Below are positions 11,035 to 45,040 of a DNA stretch of 64,000 nucleotides, one piece after another. How positions within the stretch are numbered: position 1 is the first letter of the stretch; each line of letters begins with the position of its first letter. The notes under the pieces were generated by a model. The model was not told the DNA's origin, searched no databases, and was given only the letters and a program-made list of their open reading frames with translations. The position numbers were made by a program, and so were the translations under genes. Source of the DNA: Tubulanus polymorphus (lineage: Eukaryota; Animalia; Nemertea); assembly GCF_964204645.1 (NCBI RefSeq), contig NC_134026.1:27748150-27812149 (forward strand), in the 5' to 3' direction.

Positions 11035-11669
11035 TATCACTTCTGAAAATTAGAAAACAGAATCATATTTTTTCTGGATTAGACATAATTTTGTTTCTAT
11101 TTCAAGCATTAATTATCTCTTCAACGCAACTGAGTGACAACTCTATTGATTGCAGGGTAGGGCAGTTATTCTGTAGTAGTAGTAGACTCTCTCTAGTCTG
11201 GTCTGGCAGGCTGGCAGATCAGATCAGCAGTCAGATTAGTTAGTTACCTAATCGTTGGTGGTAAGCTTTTTATAATCGGATGGGCTTTGAAAATATCCGA
11301 TCGTGAAACTAAACCACAGACAGGTCACTGACTCTACTATTAGTCAGATCAGTTATCCTGCTATAAAAAGTTGCTAAATTCTTATCAATTGTGTTTCTTA
11401 CTTGATTGTAGCACTGGCTAGTTGTAAAACAAATCAATTAACACTGAAATACCTACTCTCAATCTCATAGTTGTGAGCGTCGCTAACAAGTTCTTTTGGG
11501 TCAATAAAAAATAATTGAATTGAAGTGCATCCGTCCGCTAGGGTTGTCATTCTTCCAAGACGAGTTTGTCGATGACGTCATATATAAATAATAACAAACA
11601 CGTGCGTACTCTCCGTACCAGTGTCGGTGATAAAGAGTACAATCGGAGAACGACTGTACATAATCCCTT

Positions 11670-11980
11670 GATTCAGAGTAGTCCTGATGCTGAATATAGG
11701 ATGTACAGGGGTATCCCGGGTTCGAATCCAGTTATTACTGATACTGGTTTAGAGTGGTCCTGACTGAGGCTGAGATGCTGGAACACAGGCCGTGTGTCTC
11801 TGGGGTTTGAACCCGGCCGAGTACTCGTGGTCCTGATGCTAAATAGAGGATGTACAGGGGTGTCCCGGGTGCGAACCCAATAATTACTGAAAGTGGTTCT
11901 GGAATGGCCCTGATGCTGAATAGAGGATATACTTTGGGGTGTCCCGGGTTCGAACCATGTGAATACTGGTTCGAAACCAT
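11670..11980. repeat. Degenerate tandem repeat with GGGTTCGAACC (B-box-like) core; dispersed family
   Basis: Repeated GTCCTGATGCTGAATAGAGGATGTACAGGGGTGTCCCGGGTTCGAACC. Related copies at ~43550-43690 (same orientation) and ~56310-56410 (inverted). Confidence 0.7.
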
Positions 11981-12490
11981 ACATATTTAAACCGTCAAGT
12001 GCTGCCCCTATACATATCGTTGACGGTGAATATATGAACTACCTTATTACTCGCGCGCCGCAGTAGGATAATTGAACTATCAGTTAGTTCACAAATTTAC
12101 CGCTTATGATACACAAGTGGCAGCACCCAACAGTAAATGACCGACTGTATGTACTGAAAAAGAAATGAATAGATTCGTAATCAAAAGTGAGAGCCATCAC
12201 AGGGTTCACTCACTCAATCACACTACCGATCACAATTTGGGGCTGCTCTTATTGGCGTTTCAAATTATACCCTCTGAAATTACATCCTTCATCTGAAATA
12301 TTTCTGTTGGTTTTAAACATGGGTCAGTGGTGCTGTAATGTTTTTTTTCCCTAAATTTATGATCCATTAAATTATTTCATCTTCAAATCAATATCACCGA
12401 GTAGGCCAACCCCTCTTCACAATCTGAAATGTAAAAAAAAGAAAAAGACTTGGGGCAAATTACCAAGTCACGTGAAATAAAAAAGCGAAA

Positions 12491-12560
12491 GCTGAGCAGG
12501 CAGGACTCGAAACTGTGGTCTCCGGTTTACCAGGCGGGAATTTTAACCACTACACTATAG
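12491..12560 (-). pseudogene. tRNA-Asp-derived pseudogene or SINE head
   Basis: Minus strand TAGTGTAGTGGTTAAAATTCCCGCCTGGTAAACCGGAGACCACAGTTTCGAGTCC resembles the eukaryotic tRNA-Asp body (TAGTATAGTGG...CCCGCCTGTCACGCGGGAGACC...GTTCGATTCC), but stems and anticodon are broken. Confidence 0.55.
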
Positions 12561-12812
12561 ATCTGTGGTAATCACTCGGGTGTGCAAGTTTGTCTGGTAT
12601 GTGATTTCGTATGTGTTCAGTTTGCTTAAAATCTATTTTCAGAATGCATCTTAAACAGTTTGTCAAACGGATTAAGTTAAACAGATAACTGGGGTAAACT
12701 GAGGACACATCAGTGTGAATATTTGCGTGGATTTGAACCAAATGGAATTTTTTTGTGGCGTTGATCAGGTTCGAATCCCATCAGAAAATGATTTTCTAAA
12801 CTTGGCGGTAAT

Positions 12813-12914
12813 ATTGGTACTTTTCATTGGTCAGGATCAGTGACGTCACACTGTCAGTATAAAAACTCAGGTCAGCTGATCCCTCTTTCCAGTTCGGCCA
12901 TTTTTCAGGTAAGC
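12813..12914 (+). promoter_or_regulatory. Canonical Pol II core promoter and first non-coding exon inside the giant element
   Basis: ATTGG (inverted CCAAT) at 12813 and 12826, CRE TGACGTCA 12841-12848, TATAAAAA 12858-12865, Inr-like CCAGTT with A at 12891, donor CAG/GTAAGC at 12908/12909. Confidence 0.65.
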
Positions 12915-14445
12915 AAACGTCATCCATTTTATTTATTCATTTCGATCAAATTCATTTTATTAATCTTACTTGTAAATGTTATACATAGACCTTAGGTTTC
13001 GCACACGAGACAATTTCCAAAGTTCCGAAAGTTCGGATTACACTATATAGGTGTTTAATTATGACATTTCCATTGTGACGTTCCTTTTGCTCAAAATTGT
13101 CCAAATTGTGTTTTAAATATTTAGAATTAAATTACAACATTTGATTTTCAATTTAGCTCTCGTAATAATGAAGACGTTATTGTGATTTTATTGAGGAAAT
13201 GGAAATTTATCAAATTTATTTATGAAATTTTCAGTTTTTCTGGTGTTCAAATCTACGCGCTAAAGCGGCTAGTTGACATGCCTAGGTGTAATACACAGAC
13301 AGCTCAGTCTATTCAACCATGACTCGAATCCATAGAATCCTTTCATTCGAAACGTCGTTCAACTTAATTCTGGTGGCTTCTATATCTAATATTTGAAAAT
13401 AATGATGCCCAATAATTTAATGTTAATTATATTATCATTCAATATAAAGAGTTAGCTATTTCTTAGAATCAATAATTTTTGATTTTCTTGATTTTAATAA
13501 CATTTGTTTTACATTGCAGTAACAGCAGCAGTTAATATAACCAGCGACAGCAGCAAGACAACATCACCAATTGAACATTCCAACTACCAAACTACGAATA
13601 CCACAACTACAACTATATTACAACTCAACAGGACACCATGTCAACCAAATCAGACATTTTCTTGGGACTTCTAAAATTGGTGCGCGCCGAGGTCCTGACC
13701 TTGGATGCTGAATCCCTCGGCGCGTTTTTTGATTTGAGTAAGTACAAACTTTACTTCATCAATCTTAATTAGTTCATCTTGAGTATCTCGAATTCTTTTT
13801 TGACAGACATCTCAAATTATTTGATTTCTTATATCTGAAATTATTTGATCTCAAATTCACAATTATTTTATCTCAAATCTCGCATTATTGGATTTCCTAA
13901 ATCTCAAATTGTCTCAATTATTTCGAATATCATCAATTTGAAAATCTAATATCATCTAATGTCAATTTCATTCAATCCTCTTTAATTTTGGAAAACTCAA
14001 TTTATGTCTCACACTGATTTAATTTTGAAAATATCATTTTATGTTTCTAGTCTTTTATTCTATTTCAAATTTCAATTGTTCGAGTATAAATTTTTCGTTT
14101 TGACAAATGTTGCAATTTTGTCACCACTCTTAAACTCGATTGAATTTGTTAACAAATCTAATAGTGAATAAAGTTTGATTTGAATTGAATTGAATAGCGA
14201 GTAGAGGCTCTGGTGGATGAGAATTAACTTGAGGAAGTAACTTCATTTCCTGGTTGGTTTCAAATATCGTCGAAATTTTGAAATATTCCTCATGTTATTC
14301 ATGTGAATGCTGTGTCCAGTCAATAGAGAGTTACAACATAAATAGTTTAGACTGTCTAGGCCTCCAGACCAATGCACTTCATAGAAAATCCTGATTTATG
14401 TTTGATAAAGCAAGTAATTGGACTGCGCAGTTCAGTCCATTTAGT

Positions 14446-15221
14446 CACAGGGGTTTGGCGATGGGCTTGGATTTTATTTCCGGGTTGTTGATAATCTCGC
14501 GAGAATGGCGCTAAATATGAACTGCAAATAAATTCAAAATATCATAGAAATACCTTGTGTTTATATTGTTTATTTATCCGCCATTAAGTTCCGATAAACA
14601 ATTGGTCGTTAAGGATCATTATCAGACGGTCGTCACGCTACTATATAAAATAACAAGGGATGAAACGCAGTTCAATTCATGCCAGCCAGAAAGTTGGGAC
14701 AGTCACGTGACAGTCGCGCTTCTTATTTGAATGAATGCAAACCCGAAGCATCTAAGATGGAAACTATGATACGAAAAATATTTGAGATTAACTTACATTC
14801 AAATGCATTTTTTTTCTATGAATTATATATTTGATCACAATTTATTCTTTATAAATTATTAATTTCATATGAATCATAATCTGACAATTGATACCGGTCT
14901 GTGAATATGTTAACTTTTCATGTTAAAGTTTTAAATGTGATGACATCATCAGAATGTCACGTGACTGTCCCAACTTTCTGGCTGGCACAACTCTGAAGGC
15001 GTTTCATCCCTTGTTCTTTTATATAGTAGCGTGACGACCGTCTGATAATGATTCTTAACGACCAATTGTTTATCGAAACTTTATAGCGGATAAATAAACA
15101 ATATAAACACAAGGTATTTCCGTGATATTTTGAATTTATTCGTAGTTCATATTTAGCGCCATTCTCGCGAGATTATCAACAACCCGGAAATAAAATCCAA
15201 GCCCATCGCCAAACCCCTGTG
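14446..15221. mobile_element. 776-bp MITE with ~267-bp TIRs and 8-bp TSD (P-element- or hAT-like)
   Basis: Arms 14446-14712 and 14955-15221 are near-perfect inverted copies beginning CACAGGGGTTTGGCGATGGGC. CATTTAGT directly flanks both ends (14438-14445, 15222-15229). Confidence 0.9.
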
Positions 15222-15229
15222 CATTTAGT

Positions 15230-15520
15230 CAGTAAGCAGACTTCAGTTTCCCTTACAGTTTAGTCCATATTTTAATCAGTAACTGGACTGGCCGGGTTTA
15301 GTCCATAGTGTATTTAGTCAATAACTGGACTGCGCGGTAGTCCATAGTTAAGTCAATAACTGGATTGCGGTTTAGTCCATATTTTAGTCAATAACTGGAC
15401 TGCTGTGTAGTCCATCGTTTAGTAAATAACTGGACTGCGGTTTAGTCCATAGTTTAGTCAATAACTGGACTGCGGTTTAGTTGATAGTTTAGTCAGGAAC
15501 CGGATGGCTGTTTAGTCCGT
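15230..15520. repeat. ~34-bp minisatellite (TTTAGTCAATAACTGGACTGCGGTTTAGTCCATA)
   Basis: About 8 degenerate tandem copies. One more unit lies left of the MITE at ~14410-14445, so the MITE interrupts the array. Confidence 0.8.
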
Positions 15521-15944
15521 ATCCAGATACCTGTCACAGATACGTTTAAATACCCGTTTAGATACCGCTAAAAAGCACTAATTTTTACGGTACTTTCGTT
15601 TTTCTCTGCGACTCCAGGATCCGAAAACATGTGATTTTTTTTTATTAATCATTCATCAATCGTCAGGAAATTCAGGATCACTATTTTTGATTGATTGGTT
15701 AAACTTTGTTCCTGGTATCTCAAGGTAGTTGCTCAAAACAGTTTGAGATCCCGAGATTATGGCGGGAAGGAGGTATATCTCGCAACTGCTATCATGAGCT
15801 TATCTGCGAACTAGTCTCAAGCCACACCCACTCAATGTTTATACTAGATCTAAACTGATGTTTGTAACGAATGTCGTTCACTAGCTCAGCTCATAGTCTG
15901 AATCTTCATCGTCTTTTTTAGCTGCACCAAAGCATACGGTCCCA

Positions 15945-16125
15945 GTGGTTTAGTCAGTATCTGGACCACAGTTTAGTCAGTATCTGGACCACAGTTTACT
16001 CAGTATCCGGATGACAGTTTAGTCAGTATCCGGATGACAGTTTAGTCAGTATCTGGACCACAGTTTAGTCAGTATCTGGACCACAGTTTAGTCAGTATCC
16101 GGATGACAGTTTAGTCAGTAACTGT
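15945..16125. repeat. 22-bp minisatellite (CAGTTTAGTCAGTATCTGGACCA-type)
   Basis: About 8 tandem copies alternating between CTGGACCAC and CCGGATGAC variants; related to the 34-bp array. Confidence 0.85.
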
Positions 16126-19100
16126 GAGATTTATTTCGTTCTGAGACCAGATTTTATCAAATTTCCTCTAGCTGTTCTTCAGATAGGCCTACCCTTTGAC
16201 TTAATGTTTAATTTTCAGAATTCTATTATTTTCTTAAAGTAAAAAGTATTTCCTCTACCGTTATCCAGGCCTGACATTGATCTAGGTCTATCCTGTTTTA
16301 CACCTTACAAGTTCGACGTGGACATTTCGTATTGTTTTTTCTGTAAACGGCTGCAGCTGTATTTATAGTGAATTATTCCACTGAATGATTCTATACTTGA
16401 AGGGTAAGTAGTGACTTAATTGAAATACTTAATGAATTCATGTGAAATAGGCCTAATTCTAAATATCATTTATTGTTCGCTGTTTAATGATGTATGATTT
16501 TTGATAGATAAAAATCTTATCATTATTTGTAGTGAATGGATTTAATTGTATGAAAGTACAGCAGCGGACAGTATGGTGTGAAATGGTTGTTACCCCTAGT
16601 GGTTGTTTCTGAAAATAAAAGTTGAAGTTTTTTGTTTGATGATGAAAATACAGAAGATATTTGAATGAAATTTTTTGTGTCGTTTTTCTGTTTGTCATGA
16701 AATGAAAATGAATTAAACTTACTTAGCAAAAACCATAGGGAAATGTGCAGTAATCGAAGGAAATATCACAATTTTTGGAACTAAAATTTGGTGAAAATTC
16801 ATTTTAGATAAAAATCTTTTCAAATGTATCGCATTTTATTGGATTTTTTGCCCTTAATGATACTGTAGACTTTGCTTAAACTGGTAGACGGTCTATATCT
16901 GGTATAATTTGTTCAATTCGATGAAATAAAGATATGTTGTTTTTCAACACATATTTCCCGTTTTCTGGTATTGCTCTGTTCGATGATAATAATGATGATA
17001 ATATTATGGGTCTAATATAGACCTAAATCCAGCAGCTGCTCAGGGCGCTTCACATTTTCCCTTTTTTTGCCCCAGCCGATCACTTCAGTTCCGTTTATTC
17101 TCTGCCTAAATCGGTAAACTGTAATGGCTGTTCGCCTATATTATAGAATACGTGTATGTACTATCAACCTTCTATCTCTGTTAGCAAAAATACATAAAAA
17201 CATAAGAACATCTTTACGTATTTTTGCTGTTAGTGATTAGGCCTTGTGTTCTATTAATGCACACGCATGACTCAAACTGGTCATAGTTTCCATTACTCAA
17301 CGAGGACGTCACAAATGGACTGAATCGGAGGAAAATGTTGCGGGATAAAGAAACATGAAATGTCCAGTCTATTGAAGCACTTGTGTCTAGTATATTATCT
17401 CTTTCAGCGCCCATGTGAAATAAGAGAAAAACCCATCATTGTTACCTAAAAAGTAGGAAAATCAGTAGAATCTTTGGAGCTCCGTAGAGTGAAAACTGTA
17501 AGAGCTTTATGGCAATTGAAAAGTTTGTAGGGTATGACCCTTGGAAAATTTTGGTGATAATTTTTCTTACTGGATGTGACGTCCTATGCAAATGAGCTAA
17601 TTTGCATAAATTATAATCGGTGACCTATTTATTTGATAACCCCCCTAAATTTCAGGTATCAAAATGAACAAATCGGGTATCTAGCCTCAGCTAACAGCTG
17701 ACAATATGTAATATTCTATGTCTACAGTCAGAAATATATATTGTATGGGTAAATTGTAATTAGAAAATGAGCTAATGATTAAACGACAGGGCACTGTACG
17801 ACCTGAAATAATCCGTAGACGAAAGTGGACTGTGCTCTGAAAGAGTTATAGAAGGAATTTGGGGATTCACTACATGGTCAGATTGTATAAAATACAAAGA
17901 AATTGATAATTGTGACCGCTTATAGGCTCAATAAATCTTTTTATCAATTGATTTTTGCAATTCTTAAAAACCGGTAACTGCCTAATTAGGTAAAAAATGA
18001 AGGTGCCAAACTGTAGCGGATTTTAGGCGGAGTCTACTGCATAATGAATACCAGTTGAAATGGCTGTGCATGGAATTTTGTTGATCTGAATAAATCAATG
18101 GCTGGTGTAAGATTATACATTCTAGGTAAGTTATATAATGAATATGTGGAGTACCGATAGGCCTATTGCTGACAATGAATATTCTATTGGGAATAATGAA
18201 TTACAGCCATTTGTGGTGATAGTTAAATATTGTTCTTCAAAATGAATGTTTTTTATTTGTAGTGAGTGTTGTTTCTGAAGGTGCAGTAGCGGGCAGTTTT
18301 GTGTGAAATGGTTTTTACTGGTTTTAGATTCAGGGAAGTGAAATTATTTATGTCGTTTTTCTGTTTTAATTCATGCTGTAAATAGTTTAAACAATAAAAT
18401 ATAAAAAAATCAGTCATAATTTTATCTTCATTTTTGAGAAAATATAATGTTCACACTTGCCTCATGTTCAGAGGAAATAAAATGCAAATTCTCCCACTTA
18501 CCGTGGATGGAGTGTGGCCCTGTATGCAATAAAAAAGTGTTCTACAAAATAATTGAATAGATTTCTGAAGTGTGGACACATTTTTCACACATCCAATCGA
18601 AAAGTAATTACTGAATAAAAGGAATTATCGATTAATTTTTTGTTGATACAGCGCGACATCTGTTTTAAATGAGATCTTTTATCGTTGCAAAGTTTTCGTT
18701 TCAATTGGTTGATAAATGATACATAAATGAAAAGTTATCATGCGTGTCATTCCAAAGAGTTCCCAGATTTTGAAACAATGGTCATGGGTTAACAATTCCA
18801 TTGATTATTCATTATAATGTATAGTTTTTGTCACTTGGAACGTCATCACCCCGAGACAAAAAATCAAGTGTATTTTTGATTCATGATTTGCTACCAAAAT
18901 TGATTGTCAAGGTTGTAGGATGTAATTTATTACAATCAGTAGTTCCAGTAATGAATTAACAAAAGTGTAAGTCGCCAGCAACTTGCAAAGTACCCGTCCA
19001 CGTACAGGGTTGGTTCTGAAATATATAAGTATATAAGACATAAAAATACCATTATAAAATGTGTATTGAAAGATTCAATTATCAGCCTCACTGATGATAT

Positions 19101-20724
19101 ACTGTCGACTTATCGTTATTATGTAATGGATGATGCAAATCATGAGAGCGGTAAAAAGTGTAGTTACAACAGAGTAAGTTGTACAACCGTATCGTGCAAC
19201 CAGTGATATGATCACTTCTCACAAAATAAGCTTACGATCACTTCCAAACGTACAAATGACCCTTCTTACCCAACTTTCTTCTTTGTTGCCATCACGTCAC
19301 ATTCACCTATTGGATAACTGCATCATTTTATAGGTTAATATCTACAAATACGATAATTATATGCGAACATGTCATTATGTCATTTATGTGCAATATGCAT
19401 GATCCTTAATGTTTTTTTTTTTCATTCCAGATTTAGACATCATTCAAAATATAAAAAAAGACCAGTCTGAAGCAGCCCGCAGAGCCCTTCCAGGATTGGA
19501 AGACCATTTCAAAAGGTGCGTAACATCTATCTGCGGGCCTAAGGAACCAACTCTTCCTGAAATAATACCACCTTTTGAGTTGGTTCCTGTGCAGGAGGTG
19601 GACCCTGCTTCTCCTGTAAATGTGGAGCAGGAGGTCACCCCTCAAGTGGTGACCCCGGCAGAGGCGCCACAGCTTCAGACGCCTTCACTGCATCGGTCGC
19701 CCCGTCGAAATACAAAAGAGATAGATTATACAGAAGGTACAGGGCGTCCGAAATCCAAAAAAAAGGCAAACGTGCAGCTCGTCCTCCCCCACTTCCGCAA
19801 CCAAATTTTGAGGAGGAGAGCAGTGATGAGGAGGAATTCGCCACTCCTGGAGCGCCACCACCAGGGCCCGCAACACCATCACCTCGCGATGATGATATTA
19901 CTCCACCACGACCACCACGACAACCACCTACAACTACTACTAATTCTACTACTACTACCACTACTACCACTACTAAGAAAAGACGACCACGACCACCTAC
20001 TTCAACTCCTACTAATACTACTACAACTCCGACAACTAGATCAAATAATACAAGAAATAGAAAAAGAAGACTTGAAGATGAAGAAAGTGATGATGATTAC
20101 GAAAATAATAATCGGCATCGACAGCCCAGGCATCGACATCGGGCGCTCCAAAGGGGCCACCACCTTCCCCCGCTGTCGAGCTCATCGCGCGCGGCCCTGG
20201 TTGGTCACGAAACATCGAATATAAAGATCCTATTTAAATGCTCCGTGACGTTGAAGGGGCCTTTAAAGGCAAATATGAATTAGTTAAACGCAGGCGAACA
20301 CATTAATATAATATAGCCCCTTCACTCGCCATTACCCGGGCAACAACATCAGCCCCTGCACGTCTGCAGATCGGCACTTCTTGAAACTCAGTTTTCCCTT
20401 CCTCCTTCGTCGATCTGCAGGTTGCGCAGTGTTAAATATCTGTCAACACTCCTTGAACCAGTGGGCGTGCAGTCCTTCCTTATTTTTATTTGAAAAAAAA
20501 TATGAAAAAATAAAAACCAGCCTTGTAAATATGGATTTTATGGAGTTTTACGGTTAATCTCCAAAAAAATTTAAAAAGATAAAAATTTAAAAAAATTCAT
20601 AATCATTTCATCAATTTATTTATTTTTTGGATAAAAGGAAATTTTTATCCATCATCTCATTCATATACATTTTATATCATTTATTTATTTCTTTTTTTTG
20701 ACTGTACGTCCCACTGTGTTCCAC

Positions 20725-21092
20725 ACCATTTTTGTTCCGACCCATATTCATTAAACAGCTCCTAGTAGCGTAGATTTAACTCCATTCAGTATTAGGAAAA
20801 AATGGAGACAAAGTCAGGAAGTCGTGAGACAATTCTGGCATCAGTGGATTAAGGAGACATGACCTCAACTCAGTGTACGCAGAAAATGGTATTCTACAAG
20901 TCAAAACGTCAGCGTTGGAGAGGTAGTCTTAGTTATCGACAAGGATACTCCTAGACGTCAATGGAAGTTAGCAACTAATGCGCAGGTTTATCCAGGAAAG
21001 GACAATCTCATTTGAGTTGTAGACTTTAAAACCGAGAAGAAAGTCTACAAACGTTCGATCGGAAGCGTGTGTCTACTTGAGTTGAACTGTTT
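20725..21092 (+). pseudogene. Decayed BEL/Pao retrotransposon C-terminal (post-integrase, DUF5641-like) fragment
   Basis: Translates as RKKWRQSQEVVRQFWHQWIKET*PQLSVRRKW...VGEVVLVIDKDTPRRQWKLA...YPGKDNLI*VVDFKTEKKVYKRSIGSVCLLE, the same motif order as the C-terminus of the intact element at 46643. Confidence 0.8.
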
Positions 21093-21564: not shown

Positions 21565-21735
21565 AGGAACAGCTATGATTCACATAATGTGATTCTTTAT
21601 CGAACTTTATCGGAACATGGAGAAGGAATAGCTATGTTTCACACATAATGTGTTTCCTTATGAAGCTGAAAATAACATGGAGAAGGAACAGCTATGTTTC
21701 ACATAATGCGATTCCTTAGGAAACTACATTGAAAC
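21565..21735. repeat. ~59-bp tandem repeat, 3 copies
   Basis: AAGGAACAGCTATGTTTCACATAATGTGATTC recurs at ~21564, 21623, 21683. Confidence 0.75.
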
Positions 21736-22369
21736 ATATTGTTCAATGTTCCATGTTGCCCCTCCCCCCAAATACTATGACGTTTATACGTCAATGTAAA
21801 ACCATTATATCGTTATTAACATACTTGTTTTTCTAATTACAGAATTAAAGATTAATTTAATATGACATGAAAACTTGAATGATTGAAATGTTAATATCTA
21901 ATGCTCAATGACGGAGGTAAATCCTTCACATGTGATCGGAGGGATTTAAAATGTTTACTCATAAGGAAAAGGAATATATATTTATATACGTGAGATTGCC
22001 TGGATTAAAAATTGCGCAAGAAAGGAAACCACAGCAAAGACTACGGTAATCAATTTCATTACATTTCTAAGATGTGAAACCATCACCATCTGGATCGGTG
22101 GTCAATGCATGAATTTATGAGTTCATAATTGAACATAGGATATAATGCTAAGATCTGCAAAAATGCAATGATTAAGAATCTCTGATAAAGAAAGTATAAA
22201 ATAAAGATCTTGGATTGGAAAGTTTGTTGTTATCAATCACATTAGTGATTGGCTTTTATTGATTGATATTGATCTCAACTGATTCTAACGATCACCAGGA
22301 TCAAGGGTTGAGTTCAAAATTCTTGTTAATAATTAGTCTTAATTAATCTCTTGTTGAAATCAATAAGGC

Positions 22370-28565: not shown

Positions 28566-28619
28566 TATGTTTTATTGTTTTTACCCATATGTTTTATCGT
28601 TTTTATCACCCCTTCTTTT

Positions 28620-28911: not shown

Positions 28912-28953
<42 letters not shown>

Positions 28954-31394: not shown

Positions 31395-34300
31395 AACTGA
31401 TGACCACCTTTAATACTGCTGCTTGGTGCTGGGTGTTAATTGATACACTCTGTTTTGGAGTGATAATGAGTTCAGGAGTCTCCTCCTTCCTTCTTCAACT
31501 GTCATGTAGAAACGTGACAAACAAACTGAATTGTCAGTGTGTTACAACACTGATGGCCTCCTTTAATACTGCTGCTTGCTGCTGGGTGTTAATTCTTACC
31601 TTCTTCCCTGAACTTCTTGAATTATTACATTAAACATTATTACAATAAGAATTATTACATTAAACATTATAACATCATGAATCATCCTCCTTAAATACTG
31701 CTGCTTGCTGCTGGGTGTTAATTCTTACCTCCTTCCCTGAACGTCTTGAATTATTACATTAAATATAATTACAATAAAAAATTTTACATTAAACATTAAA
31801 ACATCATGAATCATCCTTAAATACTGCTGCTTGCTGCTGGCTCTGTTTTTGGGTGATATTGAGTTCAGGAGTTTCCTCCTTCCTTCTTCAACTGTCATGG
31901 AGAAACGTGACAAACAAACTGAATTGTCAGTGTGTTACAAGACTGATGACCTCCCTAAATACTGCTGCTTGGTGCTGGGTGTTCATTGATACACTCTGTT
32001 TTGGGGTGATATTGAGTGCAGGAGTCTCCTCCTTCCTTCTTCAATTGTCATGTAGAAACGTGACAAACAAACTGAATTGTCAGTGTGTTACAACACTGAT
32101 GACCTCCTTAAATACTGGTGTTTGCTGCTGCGTGTTAATTAATACACTCTGTTTTGGGGTGATATTGAGTTCAGGAGTCTCCTCCTTCCATCTTCAATTG
32201 TCATGTAGAAACGTGACAAACAAACTGAATTGTCAGTGTGTTACAACACTGATGACCTCCTTAAATACGGCTGCTTGCTGTTGCGTGTTAATTAATACAC
32301 TCTGTTATGGGGTGATATTGAGTTTTGGCGAGTTTTGCTCCCTGATCATCCTTATTGCGACTTAACGTTTTAAATGTATAAATATTCAAAACAGCTATCC
32401 ATCGATAGCTTTGTGGTGGTTGAATCTTTGAAATGTCGCTGGTGTTGGTACATTGTATATATTGTAATATATGTCGGGTGAAATGGGATTGATCATGTTT
32501 CCTGATCGTCCTTATTGCGACTTGACGTTTTAAATGTATAAATATTTAAAACAGCTATCCATCGGTAGCTTTGTGGTGGTTGAATCATTAAAATAATGCT
32601 GGTGTTGGTTCTGTGTATATATATTGTAATATATGTCGGTGAAATGGGATTGATCATGTTTCCTGATCGTCCTTATTGCGACTTTACGTTTTAAATGTAT
32701 AAATATTCAAAACAGCTATCCATCGATAGCTTTGTGGTGGTTGAATCTTTGAAATGTCGCTGGTGTTGGTACATTGTATAGATTGTAATATATGTCGGTG
32801 AAATGGGATTGATCATGTTTCGTGATCATACTTATTGCGACTTAACGTTTTAAATGTATAAATATTCAAAGCAGCTATCCATCGATAGCTTTGTGGTGGT
32901 TGAATCATTGAAATGTCACTGGTGTTGGTACATTGTATATATCGTAATATATTTCAGTGAATTGGGATTGATTATGTTTCCTGGTCATCCTTATTGCGAC
33001 TTTACATTTTAAATATATGAATATTCAAAACAGCTATCCATCGATAGCTTTTGTGGTGGTTGAATCATTGAAATGTTACTGGTGTTGGTACATTGTATAT
33101 ATTGTAATATATGTTGGTGAAATGGGATTGATCATGTTTCCTGATCATCCTTATTGCGACTTTACGTTTTAAATGTATAAATATTCAAAACAGCTATCCA
33201 TCGATAGCTTTGTGGTGGTTGAATCATTGAAATGTCGCTGGTGTTGGTACATTGTATATATTGTAATATATGTCGGTGAAATGGGATTGATCATGTTTCC
33301 TGATCGTCCTCATTATGACTTAACGTTTTAAATGTATAAATATTCAAAACAGCTATCCATCGATAGCTTTGTGGTGGTTCAATCATTGAAATAATGCTGG
33401 TGTTGGTTCTCTGTGTATACTGTATCAGCAAATATTATCACATTACGCATTTTAAAAGTGTTATACTCAAAGATGCTATTGTTTGATTGCTTCACTTTGG
33501 TTCCTTGCACCTGAAGGTTGTTAACTGTCATATAGAAACGTGACAAACAAACTGATTTGTCAGTGTGTTACAAGACTGATGACCTCCTTTAATACTGCTT
33601 CTTGCTGCTGCGTGTTAATTAATACACTCTGTTTTGGGGTGAAATTGAGTTCAAGAGTCTCCTCTTTCCTTTTTCAACTGTCATGTAGAAACGTGACAAA
33701 CGAACTGAATTGTCAGTGCGTTACAACACTGATGGCCTTCTTTAATATTGCTGCTTGCTGCTGGCTCCGTTTTGGGGTGATATTGATTGCAGGAGTCTTC
33801 TCCTTCCTTCTTCAACTGTCATGTAGAAACGTGACAAACGAACTGAATTGTCAGTGCGTTACAACACTGATGGCCTCCTTTAATACTGCTGCTTGCTGGT
33901 GGTGTTAATTCTTACCACCTTCCATGAACTTCTTGAATTATTACATTAAACATTATTACAATAAGAATTATTACATTAAACATTATAACATCATGAATCA
34001 TCCTCCTTAAATACTGCTGCTTGCTGCTGGCTCTGTTTTGGGGTGATATTGATCGCAGGAGTCTTCTCCTTCCTTCTTCAACTGTCATGTAGAAACGTGA
34101 CAAACGAACTGAATTGTCAGTGCATTACAACACTGATGACCTCCTTTAATACTGCTGCGTGCTGCTGGCTCTGTTTTGGGGTGATATTGATCGCAGGAGT
34201 CTTCTCCTTCCTTCTTCAACTGTCATGTAGAAACATGACAAACGAACTGAATTGTCAGTGCGTTACAACACTGATGACCTCCCTTAATACTGCTGCTTGG

Positions 34301-37300
34301 TGCTGGGTGTTAATTAATACACTTTGTTTTGGGGTGATATTGAGTTCAGGAGTCTCCTCCTTCCTTCTTCAACTGTCATGTAGAAACGTGACTAACAAAC
34401 TGAATTGTCAGTGTGTTACAGCACTGATGACCTCCCTTAATACTGCTGCTTGCTGCAGCGTGTTAATAAATACACTCTGTTCAGGGGTGATATTGAGTGC
34501 AGGAGTCTCCTCCTTCCTTCTTCAACTGTCATGTAGAAACGTGACAAACAAACTGAATTTTCAGTGTGGTACAACACTGATGACCTCCTTAAATACTGCT
34601 GCTTGCTGTTGCGTGTTAATTACTACACTCTGTTATGGGGTGATATTGAGTTTTGGCGAGTTTTGCTCCCTGATCATCTTTATTGCGACTTTACGTTTTA
34701 AATGTATAAATATTCAAAGCAGCTATCCATCGATAGCTTTTGTGGTGGTTGAATCATTGAAATGTTACTGGTGTTGGTACATTGTATATATTGTAATATA
34801 TGTTGGTGAAATGGGATTGATCATGTTTCCTGATCATCCTTATTGCGACTTTACGTTTTAAATGTATAAATATTCAAAACAGCTATCCATCGATAGCTTT
34901 GTGGTGGTTGAATCATTGAAATGTTACTGGTGTTGGTACATTGTATATATTGTAATATATGTCAGTGAAATGGAATTGATCATGTTTCCTGATCATCCTT
35001 ATTGCGACTTTACGTTTTAAGTGTATAAATATTCAAAACAGCTATCCATCGGTAGCTTTGTGGTGGTTGAATCATTGAAATAATGCTGGTGTTGGTTCTG
35101 TGTATATATATTGTAATATATGTCGGTGAAATGGGATTGATCATGTTTCCTGATCGTCCTTATTGCGACTTTACGTTTTAAATGTAAATATATTCAAAGC
35201 AGCTATCCATCGATAGCTTTGTGGTGGTTCAATCATTGAAACGTCACTGGTGATGGTACATTGTATATATTGTAATATATGTCGGTGAAATGGGATTAAT
35301 CATGTTTTGTGATCATCCTTATTGCGACTTAAAGTTTTAAATGTATAAATATTCAAAACAGCTATCCATCGGTAGCTTTGTGGTGGTTGAATCATTGAAA
35401 CGTCACTGGTGATGGTACATTGTATATATTGTAATATATGTCGGTGAAATGGGATTGATCATGTTTTGTGAGTTTTAAATGTATAAATATTCAAAACAGC
35501 TATCCATCGATAGCTTTGTGGTGGTTGAATCATTGAAATGTCGCTGGTGTTGGTACATTGTATATATTGTAATATATGTCGGTGAATTGGGATTGATCAT
35601 GTTTCCTGATCGTCCTCATTATGACTTAACGTTTTAAATGTATAAATATTCAAAACAGCTATCCATCGGTAGCTTTGTGGTGGTTGAATCATTGAAACGT
35701 CACTGGTGATGGTACATTGTATATATTGTAATAAATGTCGGTGAAATGGGATTGATCATGTTTTGTGATCATCCTTATTGCGACTTAGCGTTTTAAATGT
35801 ATAAATATTCAAAACAGCTATCGATCGATAGCTTTGTGGTGGTTGAATCTTTGAAATGTCGCTGGTGTTGGTACATTGTATAGGTTGTAATATATGTCGG
35901 TGAAATGGGATTGATCATGTTTCGTGATCATACTTATTGCGACTTAACGTTTTAAATGTATAAATATTCAAAACAGCTATGCATCGATAGCTTTGTGGTG
36001 GTTGAATCATTGAAATGTCACTGGTGTTGGTACATTGTATATATCGTAATATATGTCAGTGAATTGGGATTGATTATGTTTCCTGGTCATCCTTATTGCG
36101 ACTTTACATTTTAAATATATGAATATTCAAAACAGCTTTCCATCGATAGCTTTGTGGTGGTTGAATCATTGAGATGTCGCTGGTGTTGGTACATTGTATA
36201 TATTGTAATATATGTCGGTGAAATGGGATTGATCATGTTTCCTGATCGTCCTCATTATGACTTAACGTTTTAAATGTATAAATATTCAAAACAGCTATCC
36301 ATCGATAGCTTTGTGGTGGTTCAATCATTGAAATAATGCTGGTGTTGGTTCTCTGTGTATACTGTATCAGCAAATATTATCACATTACGCATTTTAAAAG
36401 TGTTATACTCAAAGATGCAATTGTTTGATTGCTTCACTTTGGTTCCTTGCACCTGAAGGTTGTTAACTGTCATATAGAAACGTGACAAACAAACTGATTT
36501 GTCAGTGTGTTACAAGACTGATGACCTCCTTTAATACTGCTTCTTGCTGCTGGGTGTTAATTAATACACTCTGTTTTGGGGTGATATTGAGATCAAGATC
36601 TCCTCTTTCCTTCTTCAACTGTCATGTAGAAACGTGACAAACGAACTGAATTGTCAGTGCGTTACAACACTGATGGCCTCCTTTAATACTGCTGCTTGCT
36701 GCTGGGTGTTAATTGATACACTCTGTTTTGGGGTGATATTGAGTTCAAGAGTCTTCTCCTTCCTTCTTCAACTGTCATGTAGAAACGTGACAAACGAACT
36801 GAATTGTCAGTGCGTTACAACACTGATGGCCTCCTTTAATACTGCTGCTTGCTGATGGTGTTAATTCTTACCACCTTCCATGAACTTCTTGAATTATTAC
36901 ATTAAACATTATTACAATAAGAATTATTACATTAAACATTATAACATCATGAATCATCCTCCTTAAATACTGCTGCTTGCTGCTGGCTCTGTTTTGGGGT
37001 GATATTGATCGCAGGAGTCTTCTCCTTCCTTCTTCAACTGTCATGTAGAAACGTGACAAACGAACTGAATTGTCAGTGCGTTACAACACTGATGACCTCC
37101 TTTAATACTGCTGCGTGCTGCTGGCTCTGTTTTGGGGTGATATTGATCGCAGGAGTCTTCTCCTTCCTTCTTCAACTGTCATGTAGAAACGTGACAACGA
37201 ACTGAATTGTCAGTGTGTTACCACACTGATGACCTCCTTTAATACTGCTGCTTGCTGCTGGGTGTAAATTCTTACCACCTTCCATGAACTTCTTGAATTA

Positions 37301-38690
37301 TTACATTAAACATTATTACAATAAGAATTATTACATTAAACATTATAACATCATGAATCATCCTCCTTAAATACTGCTGCTTGCTGCTGGCTCTGTTTTG
37401 GGGTGATATTGATTTCAGGAGTCTCCTCCTTCCTTCTTCAACTGTCATGTAGAAACATGACAAACGAACTGAATTGTCAGTGCGTTACAACACTGATGAC
37501 CTCCTTTAATACTGCTGCTTGGTGCTGGGTGTTAATTAATAGACTCTGTTTTGGGGTGATATTGAGTTCAGGAGTCTCCTCCTTCCTTCTTCAACTGTCA
37601 TGTAGAAACGTGACAAACAAACTGAATTTTCAGTGTGGTACAACACTGATGACCTCCTTAAATACTGCTGCTTGCTGTTGCGTGTTAATTAATACACTGT
37701 TTTGGGGTGATATTTAGTTTTGGCGAGTTTTGCTCCCTGATCATCTTTATTGCGACTTGACGTTTTAAATGTATAAATATTCAAAGCAGCTATCCATTGA
37801 TAGCTTTGTGGTGGTTGAATCATTGAAATGTTACTGGTGTTGGTACATTGTATATATTGTAATATATGTCGGTGAAATGGGATTGATCATGTTTCCTGAT
37901 CGTCCTTATTGCGACTTTACGTTTTAAATGTATAAATATTCAAAACAGCTATCCATCGGTAGCTTTGTTGTGGTTGAATCATTGAAATAATGCTGGTGTT
38001 GGTTCTGTGTATATATATTGTAATATATGTCGGTGAAATGGGATTGATCATGTTTCCTGATCGTCCTTATTGCGACTTTACGTTTTAAATGTATAAATAT
38101 TCAAAACAGCTATCCATCGGTAGCTTTGTGGTGGTTGAATCATTGAAATAATGCTGGTGTTGGTTCTGTGTATATATATTGTAATATATGTCGGTGAAAT
38201 GGGATTGATCATGTTTCCTGATCGTCCTTATTGCGACTTTACGTTTTAAATGTATAAATATTAAAAGCAGCTATCCATCGGTAGCTTTGTGGTGGTTCAA
38301 TCATTGAAACGTCACTGGTGATGGTACATTGTATATATTGTAATATATGTCGGTGAAATGGGATTGATCATGTTTCCTGATCGTCCTTATTGCGACTTTA
38401 CGTTTTAAATGTATAAATATTCAAAACAGCTATATATCGATAGCTTTGTGGTGGTTGAATCTTTGAAATGTCGCTGGTGTTGGTACATTGTATATATTGT
38501 GATAAATGTCGGTGAATTGGGATTGATTATGTTTCCTGATCGTCCTTATTGCGACTTTACGTTTTAAATATATAAATATTTAATGCCGATAGCTTTATGG
38601 TGGTTGAATCATTGAAATGTCGATGGTGTTGGTTCTGTGTATATATTGTAATATATGCCGGTGAATTGGGATTGATTATGTTTCCTATAG
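31395..38690. repeat. Compound higher-order satellite: alternating blocks of unit A (153/135 bp plus an AT-rich insert) and unit B (~159 bp)
   Basis: A blocks ~31395-32340, 33520-34670, 36460-37735; B blocks ~32340-33420, 34670-36360, 37735-38690; near-identical ~100-bp linkers at ~33420 and ~36361. A period 153 (31861 to 32014); B period 159-161. Confidence 0.95.
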
Positions 38691-39181
38691 ATGCTGGCAA
38701 ATTGTGACTTCAGGCCAGGCTGATATTGAGTCTTGGAGTGTTCTCCTTCCCTTACCTTCTTCAAATGTCAAGACGACATTCGATATTGACTGAATTGTCA
38801 GCGACTTACAACATCGATTGCTGCTTTATTCAAATACTGCTCCTTGCTGCTGCGTGTTAACTATTACACTGTGTCTTAGGGGTGATAATGAGAATTGTAT
38901 TTCTGTCCCGTGCCTTCTTCCATTATTACATTAAAACATTATTACATCATGAATTATAACATTATTACATTATCAAAATACACATTATGAACATCTAAAA
39001 AACTCGCAAGTTCCTTCTCCATGTTTACTCATTGCACTCTGTTTAGGGGTGATATTGAATGAGTTGATGTAGTTCTTTTGCTGTGGTTTCCAGAATAGGA
39101 TTGATTGAAATTTCTCGTTTAATGTTCAAAAACCCTGAAAGTGGGAAAATAACTGTTGAATCAATATTTTCTCTTACCTCC

Positions 39182-39515
39182 TTCAAATGTCAATACGAAC
39201 TGTAACATTGACTGAATAATCAGCGACTTCAGGCCAGGCTGATATTAAGTGTTGGAGTGTTCTCCTTTCCTTACCTTCTTCAAATGTCAAAACGACATGC
39301 GATATTGATTGAATTGTCAGTGACTTCAGGCCAAGCTGATATTGAGTCTTGGAGTGTTCTCCTTCCCTTACCTTCTTCAAATGTCAAGACAACATGTGAT
39401 ATTGACTGAATTGTCAGTGACTCCAGGCCAAGCTGATATTGAGTCTTGGAGTGTTCTCCTTCCCTTACCTTCTTCAAATGTCAAGACGACATGCAGTATT
39501 GACTGAATTGTCTTG
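39182..39515. repeat. 97-bp tandem repeat related to satellite unit A
   Basis: Period 97 (39182, 39279, 39376, 39473). Shares GATATTGAGT...GGAGT..TCTCCTTCC..CTTCTTCAA.TGTCA...ACTGAATTGTCAGTG with unit A; further copies at ~38710 and ~30995. Confidence 0.88.
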
Positions 39516-39629
39516 GAGTTCCTCCTACCCTTATCTTCCTCAAAATGTCAAAAAGAAGTGTGACATGGACTGAATTGTCAGTGACTTACATCACTGATTG
39601 CTGCTGACACTCTAAGCCTATTGATTGTG

Positions 39630-40215
39630 GTGATATTCACGTTCAAGATTGCTGACTGGCAGCAATATTGAATTGTAACACTGTTTGTGTCATACAGGGT
39701 ACAATTTTTCATAGAGTATTCGTTTTCTCATCCACGTAACCTGTATGATATATTTTTCAAGAAGCTTATTGTTTTTGGTTCAAGATTGCTGATAGGCAGC
39801 CATATTGGATCCAAAAATTCACCATTCCCATTCTACAGGCTGCAACTTAAAAGTAAAGTATTCAATTTCACGTATTACATGTTTGGTGTATAGCTCCAGA
39901 ACCCTATTGATTTTGGTGGTATTCGCAGGCAAGATTGCTGACTGGTGGCCATATTGAATTGCAATGCTGCTTCTCTCATACATGGTAAAATTTGTAGTAG
40001 ATTATTCATTTTCACTTATAATGTCTTTGTTATATAGCTCGATGAGTCTATTTATTTTGGTGGTATTTTGGGTCAAGATTGCTGACTGGTGGCCATATTA
40101 GATTGTAACGCTGTTTCTGCCGGTTAGATTTGTGAAGTAGATTTTCACATACTGGGTATATAGTTTGAGAATCAATTAATTTTGGTGATATACGTGTTGA
40201 AGATTGCTCCTTAGA
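39630..40215. repeat. Degenerate repeats with CAAGATTGCTGACTGGTGGCCATATTG core (non-autonomous transposon remnant)
   Basis: Core recurs at ~39644, 39781, 39930, 40074, 40199; a related CAAGATGGCGGACTGGTAGCCAT is at ~26622. Confidence 0.6.
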
Positions 40216-40859
40216 TTGTCAAGTACAATTGTGGCATAAAAAACAATGAATGTTCAGTGACTTACAGCACTAGCACTGATTATTACTCCACGTTAGTGAG
40301 TGATAAAAATATCAGGGTCTAAAACTTTGATAAGGTAAATAAGTTTGACAGTGTAAAAAACCGTTAGCATTCTTATTGCTTTAAACATCTCAGAAAGATG
40401 GTTAATCATCATAAACACTTGCAAAAACAATTGACGTCTCACTTTGCACTTGATGTCCCACTTTGCACTCGACGTCCCGCTTTGCACTTGCACCGTTGCA
40501 TCACTTGCACAAAACAGCACTGGCACACCCGCGGATCCATGCGCATGGTAAACAAATTGATCAGCATGCAGCATGCCATCTTTGTGTGTGGAAATAATTT
40601 ACAAACAGCTGTGAGTTTAAAATTAAAGAAGGTATTTTTGTGTCATTTCTTGTACAATATCCAACAACGATGATGTAAAGAAAAACATAATGTCAATTTT
40701 ATTAAGTTGAAAAAATGAAAAGTGTTGCATAGTTAAATATTAATGAGTAAAATGAGAGAAAAGAGGAAGAAGAAAGTCCCAGAAAGAGAAGCGTTGAACT
40801 GGTGTCTGTTGTCAGCAGAGATCGTAGGAAATCTCCACCCCTCAAACAGAAAGTTCAAG

Positions 40860-41720
40860 ATGATACCGAAAGTGTGTGAGGTTCTGAGAAATTTCGCTAA
40901 GTCAAGACTATAAATCAGGTAAAATATATATTGCTATAAATTGTTTTGTAGATAATAATGTTTCAACTAGGACGGTAAGTTAGTTATAACATGTAATTGC
41001 ATGTTATCTTATTGTAGTGTGTATTGATTTGGTCGTCAAGTACAAAATACCAAAGGATTGATGGGAACCGCCATTCGGGATTGTTCCAGTTGTGCAGAGC
41101 AGTATTTAAGGTGCCATGAGTCTGAATTGACTATAAATCAGGTAAAATTGAAATTTCTTTTTTTAAGAATTATTCAATTTTTGTGTACATTGTAGTTTTG
41201 AGCTTGTGGTTGGCTGTACAATATCAGATGACAGGAAGATCAATGAAGCTGGTTACTTTTATTCTATGTATTTCTGTTGTAGCCAGTGGTTTGTCTGTTC
41301 GTTGGTTGTTGGTAGAGAGGAAAGGAACACATCGGAGTTCACGAAGCGTTCAGCAAATTTCTCAAGGTCCAAGTCATGAGTCTGATTTGACTATAAATCA
41401 GGTATAATTAAACCCGATATGAATTTCATGGTAGGAACAGCAGACTCAATGAAGCTGGTTACTTTTATTTCATGTATTTCTGTTGTAGCCAGTGGTCTGT
41501 CTGTTTGTTGTGGTCGTTGTTGGTAAAGACATGTAATACTAGAGGAAAGGGAAACATCAAAGTTCTGGAAGTGTTGAGTGAATTTCTCCAGGTCGATGTC
41601 GTGACTCTGAATTGACTATTAATCAGGTATAGTTGAAAATTATCTTTGGAGAAGAGTCTTAAAAATGATATCATTATTCATATTTTGTGTTTTGTCATTG
41701 TAGTATTGAGCTTGTGGAAA
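40860..41720 (+). other. Series of duplicated exon-like modules (candidate multi-exon lncRNA)
   Basis: Four modules end GACTATAAATCAG/GTA (donors at 40919, 41142, 41402, 41627), with TTGTAG acceptors giving exons 41018-41141, 41283-41401, 41489-41626, 41704-. Introns are 77-141 bp. No coherent long ORF. Confidence 0.45.
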
Positions 41721-41730
41721 AGATCAGATT

Positions 41731-42105
41731 AGAGATGCCAACCAATTTCTCCGTCAATTCGGGACTTTTAGTGATTGTTACCCACGGGTTAGCGCAGTTC
41801 CGTAGATGCCGACCAATTTCTCCATCAATTCGGGATTTCAGTGATTGTTACCACGAGTGAGCGCAGTTCCGTAGATGCCGACCAATTTCTCTGTCAAATT
41901 GGGACTTTCAGTGTTTGTTACCGCTAGTTAGCGTAGTTCCAGAGATGCCAACCAATTTCTCCGTCAAATTGGGACTTTCAGTGTTTGTTACCGCGAGTTA
42001 TCATAGTTCCAGAAATGCCGAACAATTTCTCCGTCAAATCAGGACTTTCAGTTTTTGTTACTGCGAGTTAGCCTAGTTCCAGAGATGCCAACCAATTTCT
42101 CCGAG
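41731..42105. repeat. 70-bp tandem repeat, ~5.3 copies
   Basis: Unit AGAGATGCCAACCAATTTCTCCGTCAAATTGGGACTTTCAGTGTTTGTTACCGCGAGTTAGCGTAGTTCC; period 69-71. Confidence 0.92.
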
Positions 42106-42682
42106 GCTGATAGCTTCAAGTATAGGTTGAATATAAATACACATTGTACATCTATTGGAAAATAGATATGAACTGATGGTTTGATTGGCTGGTTTGTTGT
42201 TGAATCTGATTGTGGGTTATTTATTACTGATTTGCTGCGACTTAACGTTTTAATTGCATACATTTCAAAGGGCTTCTCTTGTTTTTGTTGTGCTGGTTAA
42301 ATTATTTTGTAAATGATAATTGAGGATGTCAAACTTTGGTTTAGCGTTTTGTTACAGTGAATGCACTGTATATGTGGAGAGTATGTACATGTGACTTTGC
42401 GTTTGTTTTTGTAAATACATTTATTTCTTTAAAATGATTGTTTTTGTGTTGCATCTCATTCTGAGGATGTTAAACTCTTAAGTCAAGATACTCAGTTTGC
42501 TCATGACTTGTTTGATTATTATATTGATGAATACATTGATTTTATGGTGTTTGATTATCTGTTGAACTATTGTTTATCAATACCATTTGAACTACTAACC
42601 ACTAGTTGTTTTAACATCAGTATCATTAGTGGTCAGTTGTTCCCTACAAATCGTATGTGTTATTTTTTCTTTATATAATGTA

Positions 42683-42860
42683 CGGTGGACTCTGTTAACT
42701 AGAATCACTTCAAGTCCAGTCACTTTATCTTGGAGTAATGATTCTCCAAGCTTACATCAACTTGGACATAAAGACATTGAACTATTGCATTGAAATTCTT
42801 TTATCTGCAGGCGACAGTTATCACCTTGTCTTAATTGATTCGAGTTAGTCAAGTCTATTG
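42683..42860. mobile_element. Degenerate Tc1/mariner-type MITE
   Basis: TA-CGGTGGACTCTGTTAACTAGAATCA at left versus the right-end reverse complement TA-CAATAGACTTGACTAACTCGAATCA; TA on both flanks. Confidence 0.5.
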
Positions 42861-43120
42861 TACATGGATTCTTTTTTCTCTGGAAGTGAATTAAATGAAA
42901 CGAGACGACAGTTGAACCTCATTAATACGATTGTGTTTAGGACGAAAACCGTTTATTACGATCAGATTTCCAGCATGTCCCGGTTAATTTACATCGATCC
43001 ATATTTTGATAATACGACAATTTCACTTTCAACCATAAGATTTGTATTTAACTAAGGATCCAATGTAAAATGAGGACTTCAAACCATTCTGATGTGGAGA
43101 CTTTCTTTTATTAAAGTTAT

Positions 43121-43388
43121 CAGTCTGATTACTCATAAATTATGCATGTATCAATCTGCCGCAGCTTGGCACTACCCTATCTGCTGAGGATACTCCAGTA
43201 CCCACCCATACCCTTCAGATACTCGTTTAGACTTTAGACCTTCTACATAATCTGAAGTACTGGCTCTTCCAAAACACAGCTTGAACCCTCCACTCACCCC
43301 CTTTCAGATAGAATGTCTGGGGTCCAGGCAACAGATCGACACCTTTCTCTTGGCTTTGAGTAATCAGACTGATCTTGTCTGATTACTC
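43121..43388. mobile_element. Small element with CAGTCTGATTACTCA inverted ends plus an adjacent 12-bp hairpin
   Basis: CAGTCTGATTACTCA at 43121; TGAGTAATCAGACTG at 43357-43371; a third copy GTCTGATTACTC at 43377-43388 forms a perfect hairpin with the second. Confidence 0.45.
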
Positions 43389-43916
43389 TTAAGGTCTCAG
43401 AGACTTTCATTTATTTGACTATTTATGCAGCTATCAACCGGCATTTTGGACACTGATTCCCTGCCATTAATGGAATAATTAATTTAACTGAAAAATAACT
43501 GTGTCAGATACGAACTCCATCGATAGTTGCTCGAGCTGTTTCTGATAGGCCCTGATGCTGAAATAGACGATCAGCCGGGGTGTCCCAGTATTTATTTAGA
43601 GTGGTCCTGATGCAGACAAAAAGGACATGTAAGAGTGTTCTGGGTTCGAACGTAGATACCACTTATACTGGGAATGGTCCTAATGTTGATTTGAAGTTAA
43701 ATAGGACTGTACGATACAATTACATGTATACATATAACTATTATCGCCACCTATTGGAATTTCGATAAACTATCAAATAGCTAGAATTAACCGTTGTAAA
43801 TATTTGTGGTGTACCACATTTCACAAGCGCCATCTATCGGAATATGGAATAAAATGTCTACAAACGTAGTGGAGTGGCGGGTTCGAACCCATTGCATTGA
43901 TTCGGAGGGCCGAATC

Positions 43917-44188
43917 CAGCGACGGATCCAGGGGGGCACCCCCTAAAGTCCTCCCTAATTTTTTATGGACTGACGGCATGTGAAAAATCCCTGAAAATGC
44001 GTAAACTTATGTCTTCGTTTACCAGCGCTTTTTTACGGCAGTCCTACGTCGTTCATGTTGTTTCATACTCTGATTGTGCCCAGAACGCGTCTACGCGCGT
44101 CTAATTTTGAAAAATTCTCTGGGGGAGGACCCCCCAGATCCCTATTTGAATTTGTGCACCCCTCCATGAAATCCTGGATCCGCCGCTG
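43917..44188. mobile_element. MITE with CAGCG(A/G)CGGATCCAGG TIRs inserted in a tRNA-Arg-derived sequence
   Basis: TIRs CAGCGACGGATCCAGG / CCTGGATCCGCCGCTG. Flanks GAATC / GACTC. Removing the MITE restores minus-strand GATAAGAGTCGGCCCTCCGAATCAATGCAATGGGTTCGAACCC (tRNA-Arg(CCG)-like). Confidence 0.75.
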
Positions 44189-45040
44189 GACTCTTATCAT
44201 CACAGCCGGATTGATATCTAAATAATCCGGGAATTTGATCAGACGGTGGCCTAGCTAAGTCAGTTTTGGTGGAACGAACATACCTGATAAAAGTCTTATT
44301 AGAACCAGAAAGCACAGGCAGTTGAACAAAACATCGTTTTTTAATCCATTCTTCCCTTTATTGCAAAAGACGGTGCGGGTGAGCTGAATCAAACTCTATG
44401 TAATAATAAGGCTTCAAGAAGAAAAATAAAAAATGTTTTGTTTCGTGTTTTATGTTTTATTTTTCTGAAATCTCTAATGATAAGTTATCAGTTGGTTCAT
44501 GATACTGAAATAGGACAGGGTCTTGAATTTTCTTAAGCAGATTTGAAGCTAGAGTTTCACGTATCATAGTAAATTGAAGACGAATTGAAGAACTGATCTA
44601 TTTTATGGAGTTCAACTGTGTTAAACTGGCATCTAATAACACGTCTTTTTTCATCCTTCAGTTTGATGACTGGATCCCAGGCTCCATATAATTAGATTAC
44701 ATAGCCTACTAGTTGTATTCATCATTATAAGTCTTGCAAGAAAATAAACATTTTCTTCGTAAGTAAATAATTCATTTTGTTTATTTACATACCAAAATAA
44801 TTAATTTAGTGGATATTCCTTGTTGAATAATGTTGAACAAAGAATCATCAAAAGATGATAACGGAGGTAAAGATTGCGTCAATTTATTTATGATTATGCA
44901 ATTTGGCGCACAGAATTGGTTAAATAAAGTCTTTGTATTTGAATTTGTTCCCCTCATCATGCACGCACGTGGTTATGTTATTATTTATGTATGACGTCAT
45001 CGACAAACTCGTCTTGGAACTAATGACAACCGTCCGCTAG

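Follow-up and report, generated by a model that had tools for sequence, protein, structure and literature searches.

A putative 33.5-kb cut-and-paste transposon with a partly multicopy interior in the nemertean Tubulanus polymorphus

Introduction

Reviews describe eukaryotic cut-and-paste transposons as limited to a few kilobases unless fused to a virus (PMC6431247). Among the closest described systems, Mutator-like elements (MULEs) have target site duplications (TSDs) of 8–11 bp and terminal inverted repeats (TIRs) of 14–500 bp (PMC6446971), with the complete arthropod MULEs given in one source spanning 1.4–10.0 kb (PMC13359780), and Merlin elements combine 5′-GG TIRs of 24–462 bp with TSDs of 8–9 bp (PMC8101967). 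The Pack-MULEs cited in a review are no longer than 7 kb; the same text gives 16–20-kb CACTA families in a red alga, and the larger elements that it treats are virus-related (PMC6431247). Multicopy, cargo-bearing TIR elements are rare among animals, with a survey of 100 animal genomes giving four cases (1.4%) of multicopy Pack-TIRs in reference genomes (PMC8277862). Here we analyse a 64-kb stretch of the genome of the nemertean Tubulanus polymorphus (contig NC_134026.1, positions 27,748,150 to 27,812,149 of the forward strand; hereafter the window), in which a segment of 33,490 bp lies between inverted ends of 66–69 bp and an exact 9-bp TSD. We consider it probable that a dispersed family of cut-and-paste transposons of great length, of the MULE or Merlin type, is represented here by a single decayed and non-autonomous copy. 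Its size is far above that usual for elements with this type of end.

Ends of the element and target site duplication

The left TIR (66 bp, 11542–11607, plus strand, starting with GG) and the right TIR (69 bp, 44963–45031, minus strand, ending with CC) both start with GGTTGTCATT; aligned as 11542–11607 against 45031–44963, they are identical at 63 of 69 columns (91%, E value 1e-18). The 9-mer GTCCGCTAG occurs exactly twice in the window, at 11533–11541 and 45032–45040 (both read on the plus strand), in each case flush with the TIR. When direct-repeat lengths from 2 to 15 were checked across the two junctions, a match was found at 9 only, and the chance of a 9/9 match at the composition of the window is 7.5e-6. 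The window contains no N. A previous sequence-only reading of this DNA had proposed both the TIRs and the exact 9-bp TSD, and both hold. It had also pointed out that removing the segment would leave a seamless empty site; the arithmetic is correct, and the empty site itself was seen in no data.

At this one locus the ends have the features of a MULE (a 9-bp TSD, TIRs of 66 and 69 bp and GG...CC termini) and also those of a Merlin element (5′-GG TIRs of 66 and 69 bp with a 9-bp TSD). Foldback-type long inverted arms were not found, as self-BLAST between the two ends gave the 69-bp terminal match only, and self-comparison of the window revealed no further long repeats, terminal or inverted, paired around the interior. 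An isolated 10-base match to the TIR tip at 62599, which does not extend further, is likely due to chance. A scan of metagenomes with the TIR pattern returned seven loci, which we rejected as chance matches because beyond the pattern all seven diverge, and BLAST gave no match between them and the window; the same scan of viral contigs returned no match.

Copy number of the interior

Of ten sequencing runs listed under one species label, four were aligned to 9400–20500 at 88% likeness; run X5 was too shallow to use. This read-depth test covers 8,959 of the 33,490 bp (27%) of the element. Three bins at 10884–11996 were left out, being dominated by two very high-copy short repeats (11237–11333 and 11669–11990). 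Run X6 consists of raw whole-genome data, of which 1,934 million letters were read; its four bins in the left flank have depths of 2.0, 3.3, 4.3 and 7.0, whereas all 23 bins across 11997–20500 have a depth of at least 59.6, with a median of 141.5. Relative to the flank mean, the lowest interior bin is 14-fold deeper and the median 34-fold; relative to the deepest flank bin these values are 8.6-fold and 20-fold, and if a single copy is taken to correspond to the depth of 10 at position 11509, they are 6-fold and 14-fold. Point depths are 10 at 11509 (24 bases outside the TSD), 78 at 11957 and 41 at 12118, and the step in depth is bracketed to 11509–11957, about 450 bp containing the TIR, rather than pinned to the TIR. 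The contigs of X1 and X2, two runs of a different study, also gain depth across these bins, in X1 from about 35 in the flank to at least 446 inside, although contig depth gives no copy number and these contigs were used as agreement only.

The reads also bear on the structure of other copies. A joint from 14443 to 15223, supported by 18 reads of X6 and a contig of X1, skips a 776-bp miniature inverted-repeat transposable element (MITE) that is nested here (14446–15221, with long TIRs and the 8-bp TSD CATTTAGT), and further joints run from 14447 to 15256 (27 X6 reads) and from 15502 to 16133 (12 X6 reads). These joints show other copies that have the same neighbouring sequence and lack the inserts. 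At many sites almost all X6 reads agree on a base other than that of the window, for example at 16279 (157 of 158 reads), 19176 (115 of 115) and 12938 (102 of 111), as expected if the window carries one diverged copy of the family; errors in the window could add to such differences. X6 probably derives from an individual other than the source of the window, because two flank sites differ from the window in all reads (5/5 and 10/10).

Because all 23 interior bins are deep against a low flank, at roughly 60 or more compared with 2–7, and because reads skip the nested inserts, the interval from 12.0 to 20.5 kb (11997–20500), including a spliced orphan gene model, is a repeated family backbone and not unique host DNA, with roughly 10–35 copies when fragments and whole copies are counted together. 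That the interior might be unique to this locus, an outcome that had been named as speaking against movement of a giant unit, is ruled out for 12.0–20.5 kb by the depth of these bins.

A predicted spliced gene in the backbone

The spliced gene proposed in the sequence-only reading is present as a model whose splice sites are canonical (GT-AG) and whose exons are compatible in phase. On the plus strand, we predict a TATA box and a short non-coding exon 1 that ends in a CAG/GTAAG donor (12858–12908), an exon 2 (13520–13737) whose ATG at 13638 opens 100 coding bases up to a phase-1 donor, and an exon 3 (19431–20283) in phase with exon 2. Exon 3 carries a frame shift near a run of A at around 19760 and has a low-complexity tail rich in Pro, Thr and acidic residues that ends at 20283. 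The model is assigned to the family on the basis of X6 depths of 60 and 161 in the bins that cover its exons, and the predicted gene likely belongs to the element as an accessory gene, as opposed to being a host gene captured recently.

Searches with exon 3 gave no Pfam match and no usable Atlas match, with an unspliced query from which an intron-split N-terminal domain could escape. For the N-terminal part of exon 3, none of 39 candidates was homologous, and none was found in a library of 1.84 billion representatives. By eye, the predicted spliced product may resemble the helix pattern of a death domain. No captured host gene in the style of Pack-MULEs was identified in these searches, the interior holding a single gene model that lacks a homologue and is itself multicopy.

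Searches for a transposase and other genes

No transposase was found among 115 interior open reading frames (ORFs) of at least 52 amino acids, none of which had a Pfam match at the curated cut-off; in assembling this set, 42 of 157 ORFs that lie inside satellites were dropped, and 2 of them were added back. A six-frame Pfam scan that reads through stops, covering 11542–14450, 16150–19450, 26600–27750 and 39600–44960, likewise gave no family, and the stretches 14450–16150, 19450–20790, 21600–26600 and 27750–39600 were scanned only as ORFs of at least 52 amino acids outside the main satellites. Within these limits (115 ORFs and four read-through stretches) the earlier statement that no transposase is visible is correct, and a heavily spliced transposase or one of a novel type could escape such scans. 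In particular, the scanned frames contain no MULE DDE transposase, as expected of a non-autonomous copy, the ORF and read-through scans detected no DDE_Tnp_IS1595 domain of the Merlin type, and Pfam scans of the interior gave no PHD-finger transposase of the Rehavkus type. Polymerase, capsid, integrase and piggyBac genes were also not found, the longest non-repeat interior ORFs (273 and 234 amino acids) having no Pfam match above threshold. Across the window, Rfam gave no match at the gathering threshold and two weak chance matches at the right flank, and no tRNA was found.

The element is not assignable to one superfamily, MULE or Merlin, because no transposase was found in it. Judged by the structure of its ends, we estimate that the enzyme that moved it would probably have been of the MULE type, with the Merlin type a clearly smaller possibility and some other type accounting for the rest.

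Tandem arrays and nested elements

Tandem arrays account for 12,845 bp of the element and nested elements for 5,142 bp, with a union of 16,705 bp, where the boundaries of the nested pieces were set by our judgement. Removing both leaves 16,785 bp, comprising 7,226 bp in the read-tested part and 9.6 kb to the right of 20.5 kb. Near the left end, a dispersed repeat of very high copy number forms short arrays (11669–11990, X6 bin depth of about 2200), with relatives at around 43550–43700 (identified by eye) and, outside the element, at 56305–56393. A decayed fragment of a BEL/Pao retrotransposon (20791–21090, plus strand) matches DUF5641 with an E value of 1.9e-24.

Further to the right, 23913–27691 is a probable nested element of 3.8 kb, as judged from its imperfect inverted ends (about 80–140 bp) and the GATC on both sides, an unusual 4-bp target. 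It contains a near-palindromic 62-bp satellite (24888–26169, 20.7 copies, 96% matches) and 1.1 kb of more complex sequence, for which there was no Pfam or homologue match, including none among 85 candidates for its 118-amino-acid ORF at 27328–27681. A 71-bp minisatellite (29583–30333, 9.4 copies) is followed by alternating arrays of 153-bp and 159-bp satellites (31396–38686) in about three higher-order blocks that are 88–90% alike. Satellites were among the features of the sequence-only reading, and tandem-repeat analysis bears them out. The exon arrays of that reading, at 31.4–38.7 kb, were rejected: no frame of the 153-bp and 159-bp arrays (20 and 24 units, respectively) has a synonymous excess, the one stop-free frame having 14 synonymous, 56 non-synonymous and 2 to-stop changes, and the arrays carry no coding signal. 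A 70-bp minisatellite (41731–42103, 5.3 copies) and a small palindromic insert at around 43915–44188, which has no clear TSD, lie towards the right end. Between 40906 and 41630, a splice-donor-like motif recurs four times (40906, 41129, 41389 and 41614) with acceptor-like stretches in between; this region may be a non-coding multi-exon unit.

Flanking sequence

To the left of the element lie genes with short introns, including a SUI1-domain gene and, on the minus strand, a glutaredoxin-domain gene (E value 1.4e-15) whose start codon at around 11034 is about 500 bp from the left TSD. Upstream of the latter is a very high-copy repeat of about 97 bp (11237–11333), with thousands of loose ends in X6 at both of its edges. 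On the right, the element was inserted at the edge of a GC-rich stretch (45041–45650; 61% GC over 45032–45460), which has no Rfam or Pfam match, may represent either a promoter island or a further repeat, and is interrupted by a MITE (around 45655–46120) and a BEL/Pao element. The latter is an intact retrotransposon (46270–52183) with an open frame of 1,812 amino acids, 194-bp terminal repeats that are 100% identical and a 5-bp TSD (TAGGG), features that mark it as a very recent insertion. The right side also carries a BTB-Kelch gene and rhodopsin-type G-protein-coupled receptor genes, two of which are intronless, arranged in tandem (52289–54838) and 79% alike, the first having the shorter open frame.

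Origin of the 33.5-kb segment

If the segment does belong to a dispersed family of very long transposons that move by cut-and-paste, the shared backbone would come to about 17 kb or more, with satellites and nested elements having added the other half at times that are not orderable relative to the insertion. Movement of the whole 33.5 kb as a unit is inferred from one TIR/TSD pair; an insertion that is not very recent is suggested by the mismatches between the TIRs and by changes private to this copy. DDE transposition chemistry is established and provides the basis of the mechanism that we propose. A DDE transposase made by another copy or by a related element would act in trans, binding and pairing both TIRs and excising the whole unit; insertion would follow at a target site cut with a 9-base stagger, some 500 bp upstream of the glutaredoxin-domain gene's start codon, and repair of that cut would produce the TSD.

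Several points weigh against this reading. The published complete animal MULEs given in the cited source do not exceed 10 kb (PMC13359780), and transposition efficiency is described as dropping with length (PMC6431247). The copy has no recognisable transposase, and 16.7 of its 33.5 kb are tandem or nested sequence. The evidence for copy number comes from the left 27% only, with the right 24.5 kb and the right junction outside the read test, and depth at 88% likeness counts fragments together with whole copies. Among the loose ends listed, none lies at a TIR, so that they hold no second TSD, no empty allele and no read that runs from the TIR into the interior of another copy.

The sequence-only reading had left two histories side by side, a giant unit that moved whole and a small element inflated in place. 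The multicopy depth of all 23 bins at 12.0–20.5 kb favours the first for that part, and since half of the length is arrays and nested sequence, both are partly true. A form of the second in which the family is real and its ordinary members measure about 10–15 kb, with this copy growing to 33.5 kb after landing as satellites expanded and nested elements inserted in its right two thirds, strikes us as unlikely. The 12.8 kb of arrays and 5.1 kb of nested elements (union 16.7 kb) do lie mostly to the right of 20.5 kb, and the joints in the reads show one MITE to be absent from other copies; however, 16.8 kb is left after their removal, 9.6 kb of it to the right of 20.5 kb, and the satellite blocks, at 88–90% alike, are as diverged as the two TIRs and so not necessarily younger than the insertion. 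Less probable again is that an unrelated long repeat, such as a Helitron-like or some other large element, landed within a small, MITE-like TIR element, a few hundred bases in from the left end of the latter, so that the multicopy signal would belong to the inserted repeat. Among the reads and contigs listed, none connects the TIR with the backbone of another copy, and bins at 11255–11996 are swamped by the two very high-copy repeats, both of which would suit such a split, but depth at the level of the family begins within about 400 bp of the TIR and the window has no second long repeat pair around the backbone. We give very little credence to the idea that the TIR/TSD arrangement arose by chance or through an assembly join between repeat copies: although there is a single assembly, no long reads were seen and none of the contigs listed crosses a junction, a misjoin of copies at different loci would not be expected to place an exact and unique 9-mer directly against both ends (chance 7.5e-6), and the window has no N.

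The preferred reading of a dispersed family extends, more tentatively and with odds that we place somewhat below even, to tens of non-viral cut-and-paste transposons of 20–35 kb that have short TIRs, TSDs of 9 bp and a spliced accessory gene of their own; these would move whole, taking their satellites and nested elements to new sites, at a size three times that of the largest complete animal MULEs reported. If this is true, a natural DDE transposase moves tens of kilobases, satellite arrays have a route by which to spread between loci, and the family points to a transposase worth testing for the delivery of large cargo. For annotation, repeat finders would break such an element into unrelated fragments and label its gene a host orphan.

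Comparison with known elements

A literature search gave no description of an animal family of 30-kb elements with short TIRs and 9-bp TSDs, with most subscription journals, Repbase and supplements lying outside the search. TSDs are TTAA in Teratorn and 6 bp in Polinton/Maverick elements. Like both of these (PMC6431247), the locus has tens of kilobases between short TIRs and is multicopy, but in contrast to them no polymerase, capsid, integrase or piggyBac gene was found here. Rehavkus elements share the 9-bp TSD, a TIR length within 26–400 bp, a minisatellite in the 3′ part and invertebrate hosts; here, however, no PHD-finger transposase was found and the nearest minisatellite, the 70-bp array ending at 42103, lies 2.9 kb from the right TIR (PMC6446971).

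The resemblance to Merlin lies in the 5′-GG TIRs and 8–9-bp TSDs, and some Merlin copies also carry tandem repeats, whereas the present segment has no DDE_Tnp_IS1595 domain and is far longer than an element with a single transposase (PMC8101967). As in animal Pack-TIRs, a TIR element in an animal host encloses an interior other than a transposase, but the example cargo given for Pack-TIRs is 291 bp with a known parent, compared with at least 8.5 kb here that is multicopy and has no known parent (PMC8277862). Whereas it differs from the Pack-MULEs (up to 7 kb) and complete arthropod MULEs (up to 10 kb) of the cited texts in spanning 33.5 kb with no captured host gene identified (PMC6431247, PMC13359780), the element is like non-autonomous MULEs and Pack-MULEs in its 9-bp TSD, the size of its TIRs, its G/C ends, the lack of a transposase of its own and its insertion near the 5′ end of a gene (PMC6446971, PMC6431247).

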